A stretch of DNA of 64,000 nucleotides, taken from Clostridia bacterium. GTDB taxonomy: Bacteria > Bacillota > Clostridia > UBA1212. The stretch covers positions 4,560 through 68,559 of the forward strand of contig JAGDAX010000014.1 in assembly GCA_017848335.1 (NCBI GenBank), in the 5' to 3' direction. The position numbers and the translations under genes are program-made. Below the pieces are notes generated by a model that was not told the DNA's origin, made no database searches, and was given only the letters and a program-made list of their open reading frames with translations. Below, piece after piece: positions 34,794-45,556 of the stretch. The first letter of the stretch is position 1; every line of letters begins with the position of its first letter.

Positions 34794-35120
34794 AAAAAAT
34801 ACCTCCTTGGAGATTTCAATCAGGAGGTATTATATCAGTTTTGGAAAAATAGTACACTCAAAAATTGAATAGTTTTGGATCGGTTTGGATCGGTTTGGAC
34901 CGATATTTCCGGATAAGTGTTCACGAGATATTCACAGGATTTCTTAGGTCTGACAGCATCATCGGACAAGTGAAATAGTTTGTGCTGTCAGTGATGTATG
35001 TGATTATCACAACGAGGAATATAACAATTGCAGGATGTTGACATATAATATAATGACAAAGAAGTCATTTAAGCATAAAAGACCTAAATGGCTATAATAC
35101 AATGCATGCGGAGGATTATT

Positions 35121-35963
35121 ATGAACGTTAGACTGATTACATTGGATTTACTGTCTGAATTCCAAGCGAAACTTATTGATGACGAAAAAAGCAAATATAC
35201 TATCGAAAAGTATCTGCGCGATGTTAGGCAATTTATGGTCTTTTCTGAACAAAAGAATGTAGACAAGGCACTCGTAGTGTCATACAAGGCTATGTTAAAA
35301 GACAGTTATACAGTTGAAAGCGCTAATTCCATGCTGGCGTCGATAAATGCATTCTTCAGATTTGTCGGCTGGTTGGATATTATCGTAAAACAATACAGAG
35401 TACAGAAAAAAGTTTTTTGTGAAGAAGAGAAGGAGCTCACTCGTGAAGAATATCTTCGCCTTGTTCGAGCGGCAGAACATCAACACAACGAAAGATTGTC
35501 GCTCCTTTTGCAAACAATTTGCAGTACAGGAATTCGAATAAGCGAGCTTCAATACATAACAGTTGAAGCCGTACGAACGGGCAAAGCTATTGTTTCTTGC
35601 AAAAATAAAACAAGAAGTATTTTTATTGTTAAGAAGCTCCAAAACCTACTTATTTCATATTGTGAACGCAATTCAATCAAAACCGGACAGATATTCGTTA
35701 CTAAAACAGGAAACCCAATAAATCGCTCAAATGTGTGGCGCGAAATGAAAGCTGTCTGTAAGGAGGCAGGAGTAAATCCACAGAAAGTATTCCCTCATAA
35801 CCTGCGGCACCTTTTTGCAAGAGTTTTCTACGGTATCGAAAAAGATCTTGCAAAGCTGGCTGATATTATGGGACACAGTAACATAAATACCACCAGAATT
35901 TATATTATTGCTACCGGCATTGAGCATAAGAGAAAGATGGAAAATATGAAACTACTAATCTAA
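35121..35963 (+). CDS. tyrosine-type site-specific recombinase/integrase (280 aa, Xer/Cre-size, no arm-binding domain)
   Basis: GGAGG RBS before MNVRLITL. Catalytic signature in order: R (TGIRISEL), H-x-x-R (HNLRHLF), H (GHSNINTT), Y (TRIYI; Tyr codon 35901-35903). Confidence 0.9.
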   Translation: MNVRLITLDLLSEFQAKLIDDEKSKYTIEKYLRDVRQFMVFSEQKNVDKALVVSYKAMLKDSYTVESANSMLASINAFFRFVGWLDIIVKQYRVQKKVFCEEEKELTREEYLRLVRAAEHQHNERLSLLLQTICSTGIRISELQYITVEAVRTGKAIVSCKNKTRSIFIVKKLQNLLISYCERNSIKTGQIFVTKTGNPINRSNVWREMKAVCKEAGVNPQKVFPHNLRHLFARVFYGIEKDLAKLADIMGHSNINTTRIYIIATGIEHKRKMENMKLLI

Positions 35964-35988
35964 AAATAGGCAAATTAAGCGCTTTGAC

Positions 35989-36010
35989 AACATTATGAAT
36001 ATAATGTTGT
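35989..36010. repeat. left inverted repeat of the switch (ACATTATGAATATAATGTTGTA)
   Basis: Perfect 22-bp reverse complement of 36246-36267. Itself made of 10-bp inverted arms ACAACATTAT/ATAATGTTGT (35986-36009) around an asymmetric GAAT core. Confidence 0.9.
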
Positions 36011-36052
36011 AATGATTGGCTGAAATAGTTTAGATATTCATCAACACCGCGG

Positions 36053-36082
36053 TATTATATCACGCAATACCTTTTCTTCGCA
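36053..36082 (-). promoter_or_regulatory. candidate sigma-A promoter inside the switch, currently facing the recombinase gene
   Basis: On the minus strand: TTGCGA (36082-36077), 18-nt spacer ending in TGA, then TATAAT (36058-36053). This gives a perfect extended -10. Confidence 0.45.
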
Positions 36083-36245
36083 AGTTTTTTTACACGCAAA
36101 TCCATTTTTATGAAAAATGAGTGATGGAGAGAATCTACAGCTGATAATTTAAATCAAAATCAACTGTAAGAAATCTGTCACTAATTTCATTTAAATGGCT
36201 AAAAAGCTTTAAATCAAGATGTCTATAGATGAAGGGCGCAGGGGT

Positions 36246-36267
36246 ATACAACATTATATTCATAATG
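36246..36267. repeat. right inverted repeat of the switch (TACAACATTATATTCATAATGT)
   Basis: Perfect reverse complement of 35989-36010. The central core is ATTC, i.e. opposite orientation to the left site. Confidence 0.9.
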
Positions 36268-36363
36268 TATTCATTTGACTTTCTTACAAGTCTTTTTTAA
36301 AAGCAATTTCAATAAAAAACAGAAAACTACTGATTCCGGTGATTTAAAAAGAAAGGAAAAACT

Positions 36364-38538
36364 ATGAAAACCACCAAGTTTAAGTGCTTTTTTTTCGTTT
36401 TTTTGATGCTCTTGCTTCTCTGTTCAGGTATGACGTTAAGCAACTTTTTTGCTGCTGATGTACCTAACAGAGTTTTTTCTTCTCTGGCCATAGCAGAAGC
36501 AGGAAGCACAATAGAAATACCAATATTAATCGACAATAATACCGGCTTTGCAGGTATGGGCCTTGTGTTTAAGTATGATTCAACAAAAGTCCTGCCATTG
36601 GCCATTAAAACTTCCGGAAGTATTTTTAACGGAGGCATTGAAAATGATATCGGCAGATTTGATGGATTATTTTCAGTGAACTTAAGCGGAATTGATGACG
36701 AAACAGACAACGGACTTTTGTTCACTATCACTTTTCATGTAAATGAATCTGCTGACGGAAGTACCATTATTAACGTCAGTTATGATCAAGAAAACACATT
36801 TGATGAATCGATTGAAGATGTTGCTCTCTTTTGCGAAGATATCAGTTTGACAATTCAAAACGACTTTGGAGATATGCCTGTACTCCGGCTCTCGTCCTCC
36901 CCGGTATACGCAGGGGAAAATGTGAAAATTACAGGTTCATTTGCTAAAGCAGGATTGTTAGATGAAGCTGAAATTATCTTGTCCTTTGATTCCTCTGCTT
37001 TTGAGTATGTCTCAATGAACGCTTTAAATGGTTCAATTGCTATCTCAAATATTATTTTTACGGAAAACAACTTAAGATTTCGAATGACGGTTACATCACC
37101 CATAGCTGGAGATGACTTGTTTGTTTTAACATTACACGCCAACCCGTCTGCCACCGGTAATTATTCTGTAACCGGTTACTCAAAGTTCATGTCAATTATT
37201 GAAGGCAATGTCACTGTTAATTCTCTTGACAGTATTGCAATAATAAGAAGCGATTCAGACATGAGTGCGCTGCAGCACGAATCTCTGGTTATTCCGGTAT
37301 ATCTGGAGAATAATCCCGGACTAATGGGATATAAGCTTACCATTAAGTATAATCCAACGATTATGACGCCTCTTTCTGTTGCAAACAGTGGTGTTTTCAC
37401 AGGAACATTTGATGACAATATAGGAATTCATACAGATTATTTTGACGTTAAATGGTATGGTACTGAACAGGAAACACAAAATGGTAAATTATTTGACATT
37501 ACGTTTAGAATCGATACTGATGAGTATTGTGTTCCTACGGTTTTAATAGAATACTCTCAACCTGATACTTTCAATGAGGAATACCAAGATGTTGCTATGA
37601 ATTGCAGAAGCGTGAAAGTCCTAGTTAATCCGAACCTTAGGCCTGAACTGAAGTTTTCGGGTGCATCTCTGACCTTGCACGATAATATCGCAATCAATTT
37701 TAAGGCTGATAGGAAGTTGTTTACGGATCTGGGGTATTCTGATCCTTTTGTAATATTTACCATGAATGGTGTAGAAACAACAGTTCATAAATATCGAATA
37801 ATTGATGACAAGGTGGTTTTTGATTTCAACAATATTGCTCCTCATAAGCTGAATGACACCGTCTATGTCACATTATATGCCACATACTCAGGCGAGGAAA
37901 CAATAAGCATGACACGCGAATACAGTGTCGCAACATACTGCTACAATATGCTTACTAAATATTCAACAGATGAGTATTCAAAGCTGCGCACATTGCTAGT
38001 GAATCTCTTAAATTATGGCGAATCGTCTCAAATATACGCTAACTACAAAACCGATGCTCTTGTGACAAAGGACTTAACACCGCTTCAAAAGATGTGGGGA
38101 ACGCAAGAATCTCCTTCACTGAAAACAGTCTACAATCCTGCATACACCGTCCTTGATTCACCATCCGTTCAATGGGAAGGCGTAGGCCTGAATTTAACAA
38201 ACTCTGTTGCAATGAGATTCAGGATCACGACAGCCGGCATCGCGGGTTTATCAGTTAAGGTGTCCGGTTCATCGGGTGGCGAATGGATAATCAATAATAC
38301 ATCTTTTGTACCGACTAATGGCGGGTATTATGTTTACTTTAACGGTTTGAATGTTGCTCAACTGAGCGAACCGGTTTATCTTACGGTTTATGATGGCAAC
38401 GTACCTGTCAGCAATACAATATGTTACAGTGTTGAATCATATGCATACGCAAATCAGAATGATTCAGATCAAAAGCTTTCGGATTTAGTTATTTCTATGA
38501 TGAATTACGGGAATTCTGCGTATGCATATGTGCATTGA
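36364..38538 (+). CDS. secreted protein with three cohesin-like modules and a duplicated C-terminal domain
   Basis: Signal peptide (KCFFFVFLMLLLLCSG). Cohesin-like blocks at about nt 36475-36861, 36877-37224 and 37231-37626 (e.g. AGSTIEIPILIDNNTGFAGMGLVFKYD...NGLLFTITFHV). C-terminal ~300 aa is an internal duplication ending ...LLNYGESSQIY / ...MMNYGNSAYAY. Confidence 0.8.
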   Translation: MKTTKFKCFFFVFLMLLLLCSGMTLSNFFAADVPNRVFSSLAIAEAGSTIEIPILIDNNTGFAGMGLVFKYDSTKVLPLAIKTSGSIFNGGIENDIGRFDGLFSVNLSGIDDETDNGLLFTITFHVNESADGSTIINVSYDQENTFDESIEDVALFCEDISLTIQNDFGDMPVLRLSSSPVYAGENVKITGSFAKAGLLDEAEIILSFDSSAFEYVSMNALNGSIAISNIIFTENNLRFRMTVTSPIAGDDLFVLTLHANPSATGNYSVTGYSKFMSIIEGNVTVNSLDSIAIIRSDSDMSALQHESLVIPVYLENNPGLMGYKLTIKYNPTIMTPLSVANSGVFTGTFDDNIGIHTDYFDVKWYGTEQETQNGKLFDITFRIDTDEYCVPTVLIEYSQPDTFNEEYQDVAMNCRSVKVLVNPNLRPELKFSGASLTLHDNIAINFKADRKLFTDLGYSDPFVIFTMNGVETTVHKYRIIDDKVVFDFNNIAPHKLNDTVYVTLYATYSGEETISMTREYSVATYCYNMLTKYSTDEYSKLRTLLVNLLNYGESSQIYANYKTDALVTKDLTPLQKMWGTQESPSLKTVYNPAYTVLDSPSVQWEGVGLNLTNSVAMRFRITTAGIAGLSVKVSGSSGGEWIINNTSFVPTNGGYYVYFNGLNVAQLSEPVYLTVYDGNVPVSNTICYSVESYAYANQNDSDQKLSDLVISMMNYGNSAYAYVH

Positions 38539-38630
38539 CACATATAAAAGAATAAAATGACCCATTAGAACAGTATAAAATTATGCAAGAAATTATGAAT
38601 AAATATGTATTTAGTACGGAGGAAAAGCTT

Positions 38631-41600
38631 ATGAAAAAAACAGCCTTGAGATTGCTGAGCATAGGTTTGGCGATAATAATGCTTGTTTCGGTTTTGCCGC
38701 TGAATGTGTTGGCAGTGAAAACTTCGTTGCAAGAAATCAATCTTTTTAGGGCAGAGATATATGCAAATGGTAAAAAAGCAACAAATACCAAAAGTTTTGT
38801 GGAGTATATTTCAGTCAATCAAGCAAATATATTTTCGAGTGTTGGCAACATATCAACACCTGTTCAAGTGTACTACAAGTTAGCTAAGGAAGACTTTTGG
38901 TATCAGTTTGGATTAAAAGAGTGGGAGGCGATACATGTTTTTGCTTCGCCTTCACATATTACTGAAACGGGTGAAGTGACCATTTACGAGTATTATGAAG
39001 CCATTTTGATGGACTTGATTAACAGAAATACTAATGGTACAAACGAAACACTTAAAATGGTCGATGGTGTGGCGAGTGGGGTTTACAACTCGATTTATAG
39101 TTCTTATACGAAAACATTTACGACTTTGATGCAACAAGTTTTTGCTGAGAATCCCGATATTACTGTTGAAACAATTACAACAGCAAAAACATCAAAAACA
39201 GTTAAAAATTTGTTATCAAAAGTAACAGATGAAAACTCTTACAAAAAGACCTCTGCTCTTCTCGACTTGTTAGAAACCTGTGGAAATGTTAGAGATGCTA
39301 TAAAAACCGTTTCTGCGTACAGTGCGCTATGTGATTATTTTGACGGGACAAAAGAGGTTTTGTCGTTTATTGCTAACGATCAAAACTCAACAAATCCAGT
39401 TCAATTAAAGATAGCAGCGAATAACATATTGTCCTGCTTTGATGAATCTGTTCAATCCTCGTTGAAATCGCTGGAAATTGGCGGGATAGAAATGGCAATC
39501 AAGACTGCCGGTCAAGTTATCGACAACAGTTATTCAAAAGCAATAAGTTCTAATCCGTATTTACTTGCTGCATATTTGACGGCAAAAACTGGACGGTTTA
39601 TTTTTAATGAGTTATGTAGTGTAGATAAACAAGCTGCAACGTATTATCAAATTGAGGCCAATGCCATATTTGAAAACGAATTAAAGCGTGTAGTTGATGA
39701 GTTTAGAAGTCGTTTCAATGCAAGTAAAACCGAGAAAGATGCGAAAGCATATCTTCGTGCCGTACAGATGTTCGAAGATAATATTCTTTTAGGTTGTGAT
39801 TATGTTTACGAATTTGCCTCGACAAATATCAATACAGTTTGGAATACTATTTTTGGATTAAATAAAAAGCACCAAGAGGCACTTAATGAAATCATATCTC
39901 TCAAGGGGTTGTATCAGATGGCTTTTGAAGACTATGAGAATTCTCACGTTTCAAAAGCATGGAGACAAACGTATGGTATTACTGCTGAGGAAGAGGATAT
40001 TATTAATGAAACAAACGATAATGGAACTGCTCTTTCTGGAGAAAAGGTGTTCGCTGATAAAATTGCAGTCCTAAAAAAGGAATACCCACAAGGAAAATAC
40101 TGGAATCAATATAATGGATTGGATTCGAATGGTGTAGCAAAAGCGGGAGATATAATTTGCAGTGGGACTGCGTCTTATGATAGTAAACAATGTATTTCTC
40201 ATGGGTACTGTGCATACAAAGGAAAATCATGTAGTTGTAAGTGCGGATACTTCCACGGTTGGCAATGCTTTGGATTTGCAAATCTGATGGCTTATAAAGT
40301 GTTTGGATCATATGCAACTAATGGGTATACTGCAAGCGATGTCAATTCAAGCAAGGGCTGGGTGTATTATAAATCTGTCTCGTCGTATTACGTTGGCGAT
40401 GTTGTAAGAATTAATAATAATCACTCAATCTTCATTACAAAAATAATAGGCGCTGGGATACAATATGTGGATTGCAATAATTCCGGTCCGTGCAAAATCA
40501 ACTGGAATAACACTATCACCGCCGAGAACTTAGCAAAGAAAACGACTTTTGTTGTCAGAAACACTAATTCATCGCTATCATCACTAAGTGGTTCAAGTGT
40601 TAACGGAAGTACGGTTAGTAACACTGTTTCTTATAAAATATCAAGCGCAAAAGCAACATCAATCACCAATAAATCTGCAACTATTTCTGTTGGTTTAAAT
40701 CAAAAGGCATCTGTTTCAAAGTGGACTTATTTTGTAAGCACAAACAAAAATGCGCTGGTTAATCTGGACGGAACAAGCGGAAGCACACATAAATCGACCA
40801 ATACTGTTACATGCCGTCGTATTCTTGATTACCAAGCCAACCCGAAATATGAGAAATCTGATACTTTCACAATTTCAAAACATCAGGGAGAAGATTTGAA
40901 ACCGAATACCACTTATTACTATAAAGTAACCGTATCTATAAATGGTAAGTGGTATTCAACAGGCGTTCAAAGCTTCAAAACCACCAATTATCTGCCGGAC
41001 GCTGCAAGCCTTCGTGTTTCGCGGGATAGCCAGGTGGTTGGTGTAGGCGATTCAATCACGCTTCTTTGGGATTCCACAAAGAATACAGATACCTACAGCA
41101 TTGAAGTTAAAGACGTTAATGGTATAACTGTTCAAAAGAAGACGAATATTAAAGGATTAACATACACTTTAGATCCTATTTCTGAAAGCGGCGCATATAC
41201 CGCTACAATCACCTCCGTTAATGCGGTAGGTGAGAAGTTCGGAACGAGTGCAGAATTCACCGTAGAGCCCAATCGTCTTGTGCGGTTTTATGACACGATT
41301 TCGGATGAGATGATTTACGAAGAATCTGTTCCATATGGGCACAGTGCGAATGCCCCGAAAGCGCCTACTCATTATGGACATACGTTCAGTCAATGGAACA
41401 GAAGTTATGAAAAAATCAAAGATAGCGGTGAAGGCGATGAACACATCATTACTGTTAATACGGTTTATGATCTGAACACGTATACCGTTAGATTCATTGA
41501 TGCATTTACCAATGAAATAATCAGTTCGCAATCGGTCAAGTATAAAAAATCCGCTGTTGCGCCGGTATCATTGCCGGAGCACAAAGGTTTTGAGTTTATC

Positions 41601-44600
41601 TCATGGGACAAAGGATATTCAAGTATTGAAAAGGATACGGATATCTATACTGTCTATCAGTGGGAGGATCCGGATCATCTTGCTATTCTAACAATTGATG
41701 GTGTAACACGCACAATTCCGAAAGAAAACAGCGAAGAAAATGTTGGATACGATGTTTCGGTAACGATCAGCAATTCTGCCGATAGAATTATCAGCGGAAG
41801 AGTGGTTGCCGTATTAAAATCTGCGGAGGGGACTATTCTTTCGCAGTCCGAATCTGCCGCTTTCGCGGTGGATAAGGCGCCGATGGATGCATCGGGTTCG
41901 ATTATCGGAACGACGGATAGGCAAGTAACCTTTACAGTCTTGTATGATGATTTTGCACCTCAAATCGAATTGTACCTGATCAACGACTATGACAAACTGG
42001 GGCAATTGGCACCTATGGTCAGCACTGATATTGATAATACCGGTGTATGGTCCGGATTGATTCGATTTGAAGGTGATGAACCTCCGGTTCAGTCTGACCC
42101 CGAAAAAGGTATCACGGTAGCTCTTGAAGGTCCCTTCAATGAGACAATCAAGTATTATCGTTATCGTATCCTTGAAAAGTCATATGAAACTTCTGCCTCC
42201 ACAGCCGGATACACGCAGTCAGGATATACAAAGGTGAACGCGCAGCAAAAGAGCGTAGATTATGTTGTCTCTTGGCCTTCCGGGTTTTTGAAGACAAATT
42301 CACTTTATACGCAGTATAACAAACAGCCCGTTACGGCTTCTGAAACAGCAACGCAGATTATAGAGGTCAGTTCGCCGACAACCAAGGGATATATTTATTA
42401 TCATTGGTGCATGGGGACGTATGCAAACGGTCCGATTAACCGTGGAATCAACGGCTCTAAGACTTCAACTTACAAGCAGTTCCATGCGTTCTATACCACC
42501 TCCGCAGTTTCATTTGATTCATCGGCGAAGGCTTATAAAAAATCAGTTTCCGGAACTTGTAAGGATACTTATTGGTGGTATGGCCTCACTCCGGATAAAA
42601 GCGGTAACATAATCGTTAAAACTCAGAATTATACGGTATATGACAAACTATACAATTACTATTCCGAGTATTCTGAATGGATTCCATATGTCGGTGAATG
42701 TCCTCTGACAAATGGGGCGTTGGTTGATGGTGATGCCAACAAAACTTATGAGGTGGAAACAAAGACAGAGACCAATGATTATTATTGCTATAAGTATTGC
42801 ATAAATAATACTCCTGAAGAACCTGTGTTTTCTGATGATGATCCCAGGGTTGTTAGTATCTCTGGTACGATTAGTTCGAAATTTGCAGCAAAGACAGCGA
42901 CCGTATGGATTTACAAGTATTCTCAGGCATCGGATTACACAACTGAATATGTTGGAAACACCATCGTTGGATGCGAAGGTCAATTATCTATTGAGCGTGC
43001 CGTGTTAAGAGAGGCTCCTTCTGTGCAAAGCGGTGACTATACTATTGTTGTATCTGTGCCGGGACAGGAACAAGCACTTCATCTTGGAACAATCAAAGCA
43101 CCAAAAGCAAAATATACAGTTGTTTTTGAAGATTATTTCGGCAATGTTATTTCTTCGCAAGAAATAACAGAAGGAGACTCAGCATTTGTTCCCGATTCTT
43201 CGCTTACTTGCGCTCCGGCCGGGTACCGTTTTGCCCGTTGGTCAGAATCTGTTGTCAACGTTAGGGGCAATTTAACTGTAAAGCCGGAGTTTGAAAAGAT
43301 GACCTTTGTCGTTGCATTTGTTGATTGGAATGATCAAAGCGTTATTTTGAACGAAAATATTGAATATGGATCAGAGTTGGTTTCTATAAGCTCACCTGCG
43401 GAAATCGAGGGTTATGATACTGAATGGGTCGTCCAAATCGACGATCAGTATTTAACTATCGAGGAGTTTACAGATAGCGGATACACAGTGACAGGTAATA
43501 TGGTAGTTACAACAAGAAATACGCCTAAGGATTACTCTGTCATCTTCCTGGATGCCGATCCCGAAGTTGTTCTTGAAAACAAACTACAAAATATTGATAG
43601 CGATAAGCTTTCGCCAATTGGTATTTCAGAGAACACAAATAATATTGAGGTTTTGGCAAACACCACTGTAACTTATGGTATCGGTATTGATTATTCCGCC
43701 GTTATTGAACTGGAAGAAAACGAAGATTACGTTTTCATGGGATGGATCAATGCTGCAACAGGGGAAGCATTAGAGTCTGCTGATATAACCGAATCGGTTG
43801 TTCTATACCCACGTTATGTCTTTGCTGAGACAGTTGAAATACCCGTTGCATCTATGGATAACGGAGAATATTCAGAAACGATTGAAGTTGAATTAACTCA
43901 GGAATTTGAAAGCGCTTCCATTTGGTATACATTGGATGGAACTGATCCGAAGATATCTAACACAGCAATGGAGTATACAGGAACGATAATAATCGATCAT
44001 TCGTGTGTTCTTCGGTATTATTCGAGCGCTCTCGGATTCAATGATAGTGATGAAGGATATAGGGCTTTTGCTGTCAACCTTTCTGATGATAATCGTTATC
44101 ATGTTGTTACGGTGTATGCAGTTGCAAATGTTGGACCCCTGGTGAAAGGGGAACCCTCGATTGGTCTGGTAAAAGAAGGAATTACATTACCAAACAGTTT
44201 GTTCTCCGATGCATTTGAAGGATATGCTTTTAATGGGGTTTATAAAGATTTTGACTGTAGCGAATTATTTGTTCCCGAGGCAGAAGAAATTACAGACTCC
44301 TTAGCTTTCTATGCACATTATGAGCCAATCGAGTATACTGTACATTTCTATGGGTTTGATGGAAGCTCACTTTCAACACAGACAGTTTCTTACGGAAACA
44401 AAGCTGAAGCGCCCATTGCTCCGGAAGTTGACGGATATGTGCTTGCAGGATGGGATGGTGATTACTCGTTTGTTGACGACGATCTTGACGTTTTCGCTCG
44501 ATATATTACTCCTGACGAATACGCGACAATCAGCCTTGATAAAAAGGCTATCACATTGAATGTTGGCGCATCTTACGCAAACCTTCAGACGACAATTACC

Positions 44601-45203
44601 CCGACCATCCATTCCAATTACGAGATCGAATGGTATTCCTCAAATGACGATATTGCCTCCGTAGATGAAAACGGTGTGATTACAGCGCTCTCGATTGGAT
44701 TCACAACGATTACAGCCAAACTTCCTTACACTGGTGAAACTGCAGAAGTTACTGTTAAAGTTGCTTACGATTTGGATCGTGAAATTGTCCTTTTACAGGG
44801 TGCCACAATGGGATTTGACGTGAATCGCAATCTTCGATTAACTCCAAATAATGATCTGACTGTAGATGGGGTTTTGAGATGGTTTGAAAATGCAAATCTT
44901 TCTATTTGTAAAGCTGATGGAACTGAACTTTCAGGAGATGATTTGGTCGGGACCGGATGTGTCGTCAGGCTTATGAATGATGGCGATTTAATCGACTTTT
45001 CGATAATCATTTTGACCGGTGATTACAATGGAGATGGCAAAATCAACAACAGAGACGTGGTAATGCTGAACCAGCTGATTATGGATAAACGCGATGCGGA
45101 TATCTGGCAAATAATGGCTCTTGATGTGAACGGTGACGGATATATAAATAATCGTGACAGCGCGATGCTGGCCAGATACCTTGTAGGTAAAGAAACTCTT
45201 TAG
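38631..45203 (+). CDS. giant secreted multidomain protein (2,190 aa): helical N-domain, Cys/His papain-like module, FN3, Listeria-Bacteroides repeats, BIG2, C-terminal dockerin
   Basis: GGAGGA RBS before MKKTALRLLSIGLAIIMLV (signal peptide). GWQCFGFA...NNNHSIFI module. At least five Y-x-V-x-F...G-(Y/F)-x-F-x-x-W repeats. BIG2-like block ISLDKKAITLNVG...ITAKL. Dockerin GDYNGDGKINNRD / DVNGDGYINNRD at 45018-45200. Confidence 0.9.
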   Translation: MKKTALRLLSIGLAIIMLVSVLPLNVLAVKTSLQEINLFRAEIYANGKKATNTKSFVEYISVNQANIFSSVGNISTPVQVYYKLAKEDFWYQFGLKEWEAIHVFASPSHITETGEVTIYEYYEAILMDLINRNTNGTNETLKMVDGVASGVYNSIYSSYTKTFTTLMQQVFAENPDITVETITTAKTSKTVKNLLSKVTDENSYKKTSALLDLLETCGNVRDAIKTVSAYSALCDYFDGTKEVLSFIANDQNSTNPVQLKIAANNILSCFDESVQSSLKSLEIGGIEMAIKTAGQVIDNSYSKAISSNPYLLAAYLTAKTGRFIFNELCSVDKQAATYYQIEANAIFENELKRVVDEFRSRFNASKTEKDAKAYLRAVQMFEDNILLGCDYVYEFASTNINTVWNTIFGLNKKHQEALNEIISLKGLYQMAFEDYENSHVSKAWRQTYGITAEEEDIINETNDNGTALSGEKVFADKIAVLKKEYPQGKYWNQYNGLDSNGVAKAGDIICSGTASYDSKQCISHGYCAYKGKSCSCKCGYFHGWQCFGFANLMAYKVFGSYATNGYTASDVNSSKGWVYYKSVSSYYVGDVVRINNNHSIFITKIIGAGIQYVDCNNSGPCKINWNNTITAENLAKKTTFVVRNTNSSLSSLSGSSVNGSTVSNTVSYKISSAKATSITNKSATISVGLNQKASVSKWTYFVSTNKNALVNLDGTSGSTHKSTNTVTCRRILDYQANPKYEKSDTFTISKHQGEDLKPNTTYYYKVTVSINGKWYSTGVQSFKTTNYLPDAASLRVSRDSQVVGVGDSITLLWDSTKNTDTYSIEVKDVNGITVQKKTNIKGLTYTLDPISESGAYTATITSVNAVGEKFGTSAEFTVEPNRLVRFYDTISDEMIYEESVPYGHSANAPKAPTHYGHTFSQWNRSYEKIKDSGEGDEHIITVNTVYDLNTYTVRFIDAFTNEIISSQSVKYKKSAVAPVSLPEHKGFEFISWDKGYSSIEKDTDIYTVYQWEDPDHLAILTIDGVTRTIPKENSEENVGYDVSVTISNSADRIISGRVVAVLKSAEGTILSQSESAAFAVDKAPMDASGSIIGTTDRQVTFTVLYDDFAPQIELYLINDYDKLGQLAPMVSTDIDNTGVWSGLIRFEGDEPPVQSDPEKGITVALEGPFNETIKYYRYRILEKSYETSASTAGYTQSGYTKVNAQQKSVDYVVSWPSGFLKTNSLYTQYNKQPVTASETATQIIEVSSPTTKGYIYYHWCMGTYANGPINRGINGSKTSTYKQFHAFYTTSAVSFDSSAKAYKKSVSGTCKDTYWWYGLTPDKSGNIIVKTQNYTVYDKLYNYYSEYSEWIPYVGECPLTNGALVDGDANKTYEVETKTETNDYYCYKYCINNTPEEPVFSDDDPRVVSISGTISSKFAAKTATVWIYKYSQASDYTTEYVGNTIVGCEGQLSIERAVLREAPSVQSGDYTIVVSVPGQEQALHLGTIKAPKAKYTVVFEDYFGNVISSQEITEGDSAFVPDSSLTCAPAGYRFARWSESVVNVRGNLTVKPEFEKMTFVVAFVDWNDQSVILNENIEYGSELVSISSPAEIEGYDTEWVVQIDDQYLTIEEFTDSGYTVTGNMVVTTRNTPKDYSVIFLDADPEVVLENKLQNIDSDKLSPIGISENTNNIEVLANTTVTYGIGIDYSAVIELEENEDYVFMGWINAATGEALESADITESVVLYPRYVFAETVEIPVASMDNGEYSETIEVELTQEFESASIWYTLDGTDPKISNTAMEYTGTIIIDHSCVLRYYSSALGFNDSDEGYRAFAVNLSDDNRYHVVTVYAVANVGPLVKGEPSIGLVKEGITLPNSLFSDAFEGYAFNGVYKDFDCSELFVPEAEEITDSLAFYAHYEPIEYTVHFYGFDGSSLSTQTVSYGNKAEAPIAPEVDGYVLAGWDGDYSFVDDDLDVFARYITPDEYATISLDKKAITLNVGASYANLQTTITPTIHSNYEIEWYSSNDDIASVDENGVITALSIGFTTITAKLPYTGETAEVTVKVAYDLDREIVLLQGATMGFDVNRNLRLTPNNDLTVDGVLRWFENANLSICKADGTELSGDDLVGTGCVVRLMNDGDLIDFSIIILTGDYNGDGKINNRDVVMLNQLIMDKRDADIWQIMALDVNGDGYINNRDSAMLARYLVGKETL

Positions 45204-45218
45204 AGGAAGGTGTTTATA

Positions 45219-45332
45219 ATGAACATTTTTGAATTCCCAATCATTGAGATATTTTGCTTTAATACAGAAGCCGATATAGTTACAGCCAGTAATCAAGGCG
45301 ATGGCGTCGTTTTACCGGATGATAACTGGTGA
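45219..45332 (+). CDS. unlisted small ORF (37 aa): MNIFEFPIIEIFCFNTEADIVTASNQGDGVVLPDDNW
   Basis: AGGAAGG RBS 8 nt upstream of the ATG. Begins 16 nt after the giant gene's stop and ends 46 nt before the island terminator. Below the 60-aa cutoff of the ORF track. Confidence 0.4.
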   Translation: MNIFEFPIIEIFCFNTEADIVTASNQGDGVVLPDDNW

Positions 45333-45378
45333 TTCATAATAGCAGGCGTTAAAACTTTAACATTATCATATATAATCA

Positions 45379-45422
45379 AGCCGGGACAGATGCTTTATTC
45401 ATTGCTTTGTCCCGGCTTTTTA
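45379..45422 (+). terminator. Rho-independent terminator closing the island operon
   Basis: AGCCGGGACA / TGTCCCGGCT 10-bp stem followed by TTTTT. Confidence 0.8.
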
Positions 45423-45448
45423 TTTAAGAAGCTGTTGGGCTTTTCAGT

Positions 45449-45556
45449 AATTTTGTGATGAGATGAGGATAAAAAGCCGGAATTTTGTGATGAAACGGCT
45501 CGAATTATCCGGAATTTTGTGATGAAACAGCCCAAATTATATGTAATTTTGTGATG
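45449..45556. repeat. 32-bp period tandem repeat x4 (AATTTTGTGATGAAAC...)
   Basis: AATTTTGTGATG recurs at 45449, 45481, 45513 and 45545 (exact 32-bp spacing). Ends 5 nt from the aminotransferase stop. Confidence 0.9.

Follow-up and report, generated by a model that had tools for sequence, protein, structure and literature searches.

The 64,000-nucleotide stretch of DNA analyzed here, called the window throughout, comes from a Clostridia bacterium (GenBank assembly GCA_017848335.1, contig JAGDAX010000014.1, positions 4,560 to 68,559 of the forward strand) and carries on its plus strand, at 36364 to 38538, a gene for a 724-amino-acid secreted cohesin protein, P0001 (P numbers denote relatives and family proteins, L numbers genome loci). 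The protein ends in a 300-residue module that, judging by its sequence, belongs to no described family, and its gene is followed by those for a giant dockerin protein, P0002, and for a small peptide of a kind linked to module genes elsewhere. An AGGA ribosome-binding site lies approximately 8 nt 5' of the ATG, and the first 31 residues (36364 to 36456; MKTTKFKCFFFVFLMLLLLCSGMTLSNFFAA) read as a Sec-type signal peptide, with a basic n-region, a hydrophobic core and a putative cleavage site between ...FFA and AD; no lipobox was seen on reading it. The initial annotation had taken this frame to encode a secreted protein, and that reading stands. Copies of the gene were found in gut metagenomes from four studies, with at least 99% identity and zero indels; the contig index held no record of P0001 itself.

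Searched against Pfam, as the initial annotation had proposed, the whole protein matched Cohesin PF00963 with 59.3 bits (E = 6e-16) over three stretches. When the blocks were scored individually against the curated cut-off of 24.1 bits, the first (residues 32 to 168; 36457 to 36867; 32.6 bits) and the third (residues 291 to 424; 37234 to 37635; 29.2 bits) exceeded it, and these two are 33% identical to each other (E = 4e-25). The middle block (residues 169 to 290; 36868 to 37233) remained under the cut-off with 18.8 bits (E = 0.002), yet it aligned to positions 9 to 125 of the 139 in the model; its relationship to block 1 is weak (E = 2.5e-4). It is all-beta in the AlphaFold model, with a predicted local distance difference test score (pLDDT) of approximately 70 to 90, and is also found in P0007 and P0008. 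Because this block is both sub-threshold and weakly related, a description as two canonical cohesins and one divergent cohesin-like block fits better than the three cohesins originally proposed, and by its sequence the middle block is a degenerate cohesin-like block, not a canonical cohesin. Codon 330, in cohesin 3, begins at position 37351 with A in the window and with G in all four metagenome runs, giving Asn and Asp, respectively; since Asp agrees with the family consensus Y-D-P at this place, the A in the window is a private variant or an assembly error.

A plain sequence search of the PDB with the whole of P0001 retrieved no solved cohesin, only chance matches to acyl-CoA dehydrogenases, so that a cohesin profile was required. 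This profile, made from eleven cohesins taken from P0001 and its four relatives, matched solved structures, the best being the adaptor 3l8q (ScaB-type; E = 8e-9), together with the Ruminococcus flavefaciens-type cohesins 5nrm/5nrk (2.7e-7, full length) and ScaC 5lxv (2e-6). AlphaFold modeling of residues 32 to 424, from an alignment of 5 sequences only, gave three all-beta domains with a mean pLDDT of 83. Foldseek aligned this model to 6kgc, 3ul4, 4dh2 and 5lxv with template modeling (TM) scores of 0.67 to 0.80 and root-mean-square deviations (rmsd) of 2.0 to 2.8 Å, and to the cohesin dyad 3l8q over approximately 343 columns; its output is silent on which query domain each match covers, and the fold of the middle block is not singled out. 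Altogether, both sequence and fold make P0001 a cohesin protein, the profile match and the structural match on which the initial annotation had let its reading depend having both been found.

Behind the cohesins, residues 425 to 724 form the internal duplication that was noted at the outset. The first half (residues 425 to 575; 37636 to 38088) and the second half (residues 576 to 724; 38089 to 38535) share 25% identity over 134 amino acids (E = 1e-9), and neither matched anything in Pfam at E ≤ 10, thus no SLH, CW_binding_1/2, LysM, SH3b, GW or WxL family. The Pfam search of P0001 likewise gave no SLH, Gram_pos_anchor or other wall-binding family, and NCBIfam, searched with the whole protein, has no model for the module. 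Since the module extends to the last residue (...NSAYAYVH), P0001 has no C-terminal transmembrane segment, and the original claim that SLH, LPxTG and transmembrane anchors are all missing is confirmed. AlphaFold, using an alignment of 39 sequences, modeled the module with a pLDDT of 96.1 and a predicted TM-score of 0.90; in this model two copies of a roughly eight-stranded beta-sandwich, each followed by a helical hairpin, succeed one another, the fold being repeated to the last residue.

Comparison of the module model with the PDB and BFVD by Foldseek gave no counterpart for the whole module (TM-score ≤0.29, rmsd approximately 15 Å). The matches returned were generic FN3/Ig tandems and local, one-sandwich matches to the carbohydrate-binding module (CBM) family CBM56 and to pullulanase- and GH64-associated sandwiches; one sandwich aligned to CBM56 5t7a with a TM-score on the target of 0.56 to 0.60 over 92 to 105 columns (E approximately 2e-3), a local match only, and Pfam gave no sequence match of the module to any CBM family. 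Conservation across the module family peaks in the hairpins, where the first half reads YS[VI]xxYCYNML...LRTLLVDLLNYGxxSQxY and the second half VSNTxxYSIESYAY...AMMKYGDSAYAY. The family is acidic, with a median isoelectric point (pI) of 4.6, and contains 8.7% tyrosine; this pI rules out the module as a basic polyanion binder. The C-terminal domain that the initial annotation could not recognize is therefore also without a match in Pfam, NCBIfam and the structure databases, and the structure prediction it had suggested for residues 425 to 724 yielded a confident duplicated fold.

Taken alone, the module is shared far more widely than the protein as a whole, for which five relatives were found among 5.8 billion sequences. 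A word-indexed search with residues 425 to 724 returned 2048 proteins, the top 120 being 45 to 60% identical to the query across 98 to 100% of its 300 residues, and an exhaustive search returned 4135 cluster representatives, of which 2181 have E ≤ 1e-10 and 682 have E ≤ 1e-30. The module ends no more than 26 residues from the C terminus in 226 of the 228 proteins examined, and at the exact last residue in 132. An exception is P0013, in which a signal peptide and the module are followed by two CBM26 domains, and which would be a substrate binder needing a second attachment point. The passengers to which the module is joined are mutually unrelated: among the top 120 proteins they comprise BspA-type leucine-rich repeats (LRR_5; 34 proteins), cohesins (12), C-type lectins (7) and DUF6273 (7), and further NPCBM, Glug, transglutaminase-like, Big_3/Flg_new_2, CBM26, GH16 and GDPD domains, while many of these 120 have no Pfam domain at all in the passenger. 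Enzyme-type passengers in the family also include GH76-like glycoside hydrolases besides those of GH16. Lengths range from 328 to 5051 amino acids, and a simple test detected a signal peptide in 186 of 221 module proteins; SLH or LPXTG occurs in none of the module proteins listed, and the final 60 residues of the family members examined contain no LPxTG.

Among species-representative genomes, 341 module loci were found. The best 80 of these all lie in metagenome-assembled genomes of animal-gut Oscillospiraceae, Acutalibacteraceae, Faecousia and unclassified Eubacteriales or Clostridia, with a few labelled Roseburia/Lachnospiraceae, and several genomes have two to four module loci within these 80; every member of the family stems from an uncultured organism. 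A neighbor search restricted to open reading frames (ORFs) of at least 120 amino acids at 79 module loci gave no conserved neighboring gene; a cluster from 23 loci proved to be antisense shadow ORFs inside the module genes themselves. A cohesin hidden Markov model (HMM) specific to the subfamily found no cohesins at the 79 genome module loci, and the contexts of three cohesin-plus-module orthologues contained no adjoining dockerin gene. Two features of the family's sequences may be recorded here. Immediately N-terminal to the module, many members (P0011, P0012, P0022, P0031, P0032, P0047, P0088 and P0101) have Cys-rich CxxC...CxxC stretches resembling zinc ribbons, e.g., ...GDWELETEATPGNQGLYFKTCAVCGN..., which are absent from P0001. 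An L-V-S-x-x-P motif (MLVSVLPLNVLA, LVSAIPLTA, LVSVVPTTVFA), which a SipW-like peptidase might read, is common to the signal peptide of P0002 and those of many module proteins; that of P0001 lacks it.

Small ORFs 3' of the module genes encode a family of acidic peptides of 34 to 53 amino acids with the consensus ..[YF]xxPE[IM]E[IV]T.F...D[VI]I[TR]TS, a variable Gly-rich stretch and [IV]xLPDDxW; the family is absent from Pfam and NCBIfam. An HMM of this peptide, run on the 24,525 stop-to-stop segments that the six frames of all loci yield, gave 52 to 53 matches, every one on the same strand as the module gene. Of 75 evaluable loci, 42 have the peptide gene adjacent, ending 126 to 253 nt after the module end, and the other 33 do not. 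The linkage of the two genes is strong. In the window, an HMM built without the local copy found a 37-codon gene preceded by a ribosome-binding site (MNIFEFPIIEIFCFNTEADIVTASNQGDGVVLPDDNW; 45219 to 45332, plus strand; E = 1.6e-6), the sole match among 1606 window segments; it starts 15 nt after the P0002 stop and lies, behind the giant gene, 6.7 kb from the module. No peptide was found in L083 to L086, the loci of relatives without the module. Other peptide genes lie at L002 5386-5514, L004 3549-3671, L080 9555-9659 and 9682-9879, and L087 3004-3117, and a longer variant of 149 codons occupies the peptide-gene position in L015. At L087 the module protein is P0234, whose gene has the peptide gene on its 3' side and, on its 5' side, a 34-codon ORF and a gene for a 286-amino-acid protein without a recognized family. 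We also weighed a lasso peptide as the identity of the small peptide and dropped it, the spacing from ...TTS to LPDD varying from 0 to approximately 25 residues and no cyclase being present.

The peptide resembles the precursors of linear polyphosphorylated peptide (LPP)-type peptides that are made on ribosomes and modified after translation (RiPPs). These clusters were described by Popov et al. (2026) from Bacilli, where they are embedded in polysaccharide loci; their precursors share a YxxPx[V/L/I] leader motif, and their core set consists of a discrete RiPP recognition element (RRE), a SipW-like signal peptidase I (SpI), an HprK-like kinase and a nucleoside triphosphate (NTP) transferase (PMC13381572). 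Compared with a leader motif of the form [Y/W]xxPx[L/V/I/F/A], the consensus of the present family reads Y/F-x-x-P-E-[I/M] and the window copy F-E-F-P-I-I. At nine loci the peptide gene or genes are succeeded by genes for LPP-type maturation. Five of these have the LPP-type set of four genes, among them those for an HprK-related kinase-like protein (a weak match), a PqqD RRE and NTP_transf_5, placed directly after the module and peptide genes (L080 10003-12548, L081 10114-12670, L002 5583-8123, L030 7375-8702 and L072 6600-10775); L010, L024, L047 and L048 have the RRE and NTP transferase only. The lasso-type PqqD RRE matched with E = 5e-6, and matches to curated kinase and peptidase models stayed below their cut-offs. 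At L080 and L081, between 3700 and 7000, the syntenic cohesin-module genes P0031 and P0075 stand just 3' of genes for deoxythymidine diphosphate (dTDP)-sugar biosynthesis of the rhamnose type and of a glycosyltransferase gene. From these sequences, the matured peptide may be the module's envelope ligand, a cytoplasmic partner or a co-regulated signal.

The gene behind that of P0001 (38583 to 45203, plus strand; an ORF of 2206 amino acids with its likely ATG at 38631) is separated from it by no terminator and encodes a giant secreted protein, the probable partner of P0001, with Flg_new, CHB_HEX_C_1/Fn3_assoc and Big_2 domains and a C-terminal type I dockerin (residues 2146 to 2200 of the ORF; 45018 to 45182; Pfam Dockerin_1, E = 3.9e-11). 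We infer that this dockerin plugs into the cohesins of P0001, the main argument being that the adjacency of the two genes is conserved in L083 and L086. There the genes of the closest relatives of P0001, namely, P0007 and P0008, which have the same layout of cohesin, divergent block and cohesin, adjoin giants of P0002 architecture. Over 1700 amino acids, the L086 giant shares 32% identity with P0002, and a dockerin of the subtype ...NNRDxAxLxRYLVGKETL ends all three giants. The C-terminal position, held in P0001 by the module, is occupied in P0007 by a dockerin and in P0008 by a PT-linker and a basic FN3-like tail. The relatives P0006, P0007 and P0009 carry a dockerin, and P0001 has no dockerin match in Pfam; of the scaffoldin-like adaptor initially proposed, the cohesin identity is upheld, whereas the strict sense of a cellulosomal adaptor, with cohesins and a dockerin, does not apply. 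The P0008 locus also encodes (L086 9962-11182) a 406-amino-acid protein with a cohesin, a C-terminal transmembrane helix and a basic tail, i.e., a membrane-anchored cohesin.

Parts of the giant recur in proteins that bear the module. In a Rosetta stone relationship, the Cys-rich region of P0002 (residues 482 to 668), which has no match in Pfam, shares 56% identity with part of P0204, a protein whose end is the module itself, and the N-terminal helical region of P0002 (residues 95 to 476) recurs in seven other module proteins. This suggests that the same passengers are either fused to the module or docked on a cohesin protein that bears it.

The operon lies on an island of approximately 10.5 kb (34905 to 45440) between the genes for an M18 aminopeptidase and an aspartate aminotransferase, which also holds a promoter switch and a recombinase and has 38.7% GC versus 57.7% in the rest of the window. 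The flanking M18 aminopeptidase is at most 75% identical to proteins labelled "MAG: Clostridia bacterium" and 57% identical to those of Oscillospiraceae. On the 5' side of the operon, a tyrosine recombinase gene (35088 to 35963, plus strand; Pfam Phage_integrase, E = 1e-25) stands beside an invertible segment (35985 to 36273) bounded by 27-nt inverted repeats, 93% complementary, with approximately 235 bp between them. Within it lies a strong, extended -10 promoter (TTGCGA-18-TGnTATAAT; 36083 to 36054, minus strand). In one metagenome run the contigs stop at the inverted repeats, and a loose end has the flipped orientation. A terminator-like hairpin and T-run close the operon at approximately 45380 to 45425 (plus strand; GCCGGGACA...TGTCCCGGC TTTTTATTT). 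Four exactly phased 32-bp repeats (45447 to 45556; core GKAATTTTGTGATG) lie where the island ends on the right, immediately before the aminotransferase stop. We take the operon to be horizontally acquired and probably phase variable.

How these parts might work together can be put as follows. The operon, in the order cohesin protein, giant dockerin protein and small peptide, would serve surface display. P0001 would be exported by Sec, its two canonical cohesins, possibly with the divergent middle block, would hold the dockerin of P0002, and the module would act as a base that fixes the protein and its docked cargo at the cell surface of the producer, doing the job that SLH or sortase ends do in classical anchoring scaffoldins. 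The LPP-type peptide, or its matured product, probably participates in the function of the module, given the tight linkage of their genes. Conservation of the module across unrelated proteins suggests one constant partner. Its strict C-terminal position, the scarcity of other anchors and the dockerin or other tail swapped in by relatives fit an attachment or ligand-binding role. Adhesin, lectin, CBM and cohesin passengers work only with their other end fixed, and this, like the several paralogues per genome, favors a base at the cell surface. The view of P0001 as a switchable, horizontally acquired adaptor whose end module is its cell-surface base seems to us evenly poised between right and wrong, and for retention at the surface by the module, taken by itself, we would likewise put the chances as equal either way. 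The analysis establishes the domain anatomy and fold, the family's size and C-terminal placement, the gene linkage and the conserved pairing of cohesin protein and giant; we infer from sequence the cohesin-dockerin binding, the surface retention and any contact between module and peptide alike.

Several observations weigh against a surface base. The module is acidic, and most non-covalent wall binders are basic. P0234 (L087 2005-2991), a complete protein of 328 amino acids, consists of a signal peptide and the module only, which is odd for a pure anchor. SH3_3 in P0204, choline-binding repeats in P0107 and a dockerin in P0027 stand beside the module, so that it is not absolutely exclusive with other attachment devices. 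The peptides have no signal peptide, no Cys and no transmembrane segment, and contact outside the cell would need their export and maturation. In the present assembly the switch promoter faces leftward, away from the operon; the island is foreign to its host by composition, and the 64-kb window contains no other module protein and no LPP-type enzymes or other LPP machinery. Finally, CBM56 and beta-sandwiches of the pullulanase type are among the best local matches in fold, and these would suit glycan binding.

That last point leads to the alternative that survives best, in which the module binds carbohydrate or another ligand on an external target (dietary fiber, mucin or other microbes) and P0001 is a substrate-targeting scaffoldin, comparable to CipA with CBM3, attached to the cell by other means or not at all. 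We regard this as unlikely, though it deserves to be taken seriously. The local matches to CBM56 and to the pullulanase- and GH64-associated sandwiches suit it, but these are generic, the TM-score being approximately 0.2 for the whole module and 0.56 to 0.60 for a single sandwich only. Glycoside hydrolases (GH16, GH76-like) are indeed passengers in some members, yet the majority of passengers are not enzymes but either cohesins or binders in their own right (LRR, lectins, CBM26, NPCBM). The tyrosine-rich composition, the conservation of Tyr, Asp, Gln and Glu in the hairpins, an acidity found in many CBMs and the stand-alone secreted module P0234 would all be at home in such a reading; however, CBMs are not restricted to the ends of proteins, as the module nearly always is, the 45 to 60% conservation across unrelated proteins points to one constant partner, and the linked peptide gene is left unexplained.

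Quite unlikely, in our estimate, is a role of the module in export, folding or maturation, with the peptide acting as a cytoplasmic chaperone or inhibitor, or with LPP-type machinery recognizing or modifying the module. A peptide made right after the module, from a gene on the same strand 126 to 253 nt past its end, and made without a signal peptide, would fit such a role, as would the LPP-type enzymes 3' in nine loci; against strict pairing in cis, however, stand the 33 loci of 75 without an adjacent peptide gene and the distance of 6.7 kb in the window. Sorting domains, e.g., the C-terminal domain (CTD) of the type IX secretion system (T9SS), typically sit strictly at the C terminus, but 300 well-folded residues are large for a sorting tag, and Sec signal peptides are already present in most of the family. 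The peptide, moreover, has the look of an RRE-dependent RiPP precursor of the ordinary kind, its leader being of the YxxP type (PMC13381572). Self-association of the module, stand-alone and fused copies co-assembling into a surface layer or fiber with the passengers outward, is improbable: the modeled internal pseudo-dimer with four conserved helices, the stand-alone secreted copy, the many paralogues per genome and the very high conservation would agree with it, but the single-chain model gives no sign of oligomerization, no similarity to known S-layer proteins was seen, and stand-alone copies are rare among the top matches.

Returning to the module as a surface base, a more specific form of this proposal holds that the module and the LPP-type peptide together make up a previously unrecognized surface-attachment system of uncultured gut Clostridia. 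The peptide would then undergo maturation (by phosphorylation or some other decoration) and export and would remain in the envelope, and the module would bind its conserved LPDDxW end. We hold this form to be doubtful. If true, Gram-positive cells would have, in addition to SLH and sortase, a third means of retaining scaffoldins, adhesins and enzymes, and the newly described LPP peptides would gain a first biological role. More generally, few C-terminal ends are commoner than this module on the secreted proteins of a large group of uncultured gut and rumen Clostridia, and it is a promising candidate for a new mode of protein retention at the cell surface. Its ligand, once defined, would annotate thousands of surface proteins, among them LRR adhesins, lectins, enzymes and scaffoldins, and could explain the role of LPP-type peptides, and the module itself would give those who engineer Gram-positive surfaces a compact new tag for display.

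Among known systems, the closest are the anchoring scaffoldins, i.e., ScaE of R. flavefaciens and Sca2 of Ruminococcus bromii, which are anchored by sortase, and SdbA, OlpB and Orf2p of Acetivibrio thermocellus, which are anchored by SLH (PMC4611034; PMC12484212). Like these, P0001 is secreted and combines cohesins with a C-terminal end-device, its surface-holding function being predicted. Having neither SLH nor LPXTG, it falls outside that class, and it differs further in the 300-residue unrecognized module found in their place, in its presumed cargo, which is one giant non-cellulolytic protein, and in the placement of its operon on a foreign island behind an invertible promoter. As to cargo, R. 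bromii Sca2 also binds the dockerins of non-glycosidases, e.g., LRR proteins and peptidases (PMC4611034; PMC12484212). The tandem cohesins of P0001 recall the adaptor scaffoldins (ScaB and ScaC of R. flavefaciens and the Acetivibrio cellulolyticus type II cohesin dyad 3l8q), to which its relative P0007, with cohesins and a dockerin, truly belongs; P0001 itself, unlike them, has a degenerate middle cohesin and no dockerin and so lies outside this class as well.

The module-linked peptides share with LPP precursors a leader start of the form [Y/F]xxPx[I/M/V] and an end of the form ...T-x-S. In contrast to the published LPP clusters, which have not been reported beside large secreted proteins, the precursor genes here are scattered, one per module gene; the peptides share a conserved C-terminal LPDDxW, and no MsbA-like transporter was seen in the loci. 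As for the module, its presence on diverse passengers and in many paralogues resembles the T9SS CTD of Bacteroidota and the choline-binding and CWB2 repeats of Firmicutes, to none of which it is related in sequence or fold; compared with the T9SS CTD it is also much larger, acidic and found in monoderm Clostridia. Altogether, the cohesin-dockerin part of this locus is of a known kind, yet it is non-cellulosomal and lies on a foreign island with an invertible promoter. What is new is a large family of C-terminal modules with a confidently modeled fold and no database entry, linked to a RiPP-like peptide, and it appears where anchoring of cohesin-dockerin systems has been known through SLH or sortase, with the search for other mechanisms described as open in a 2025 review (PMC12484212).

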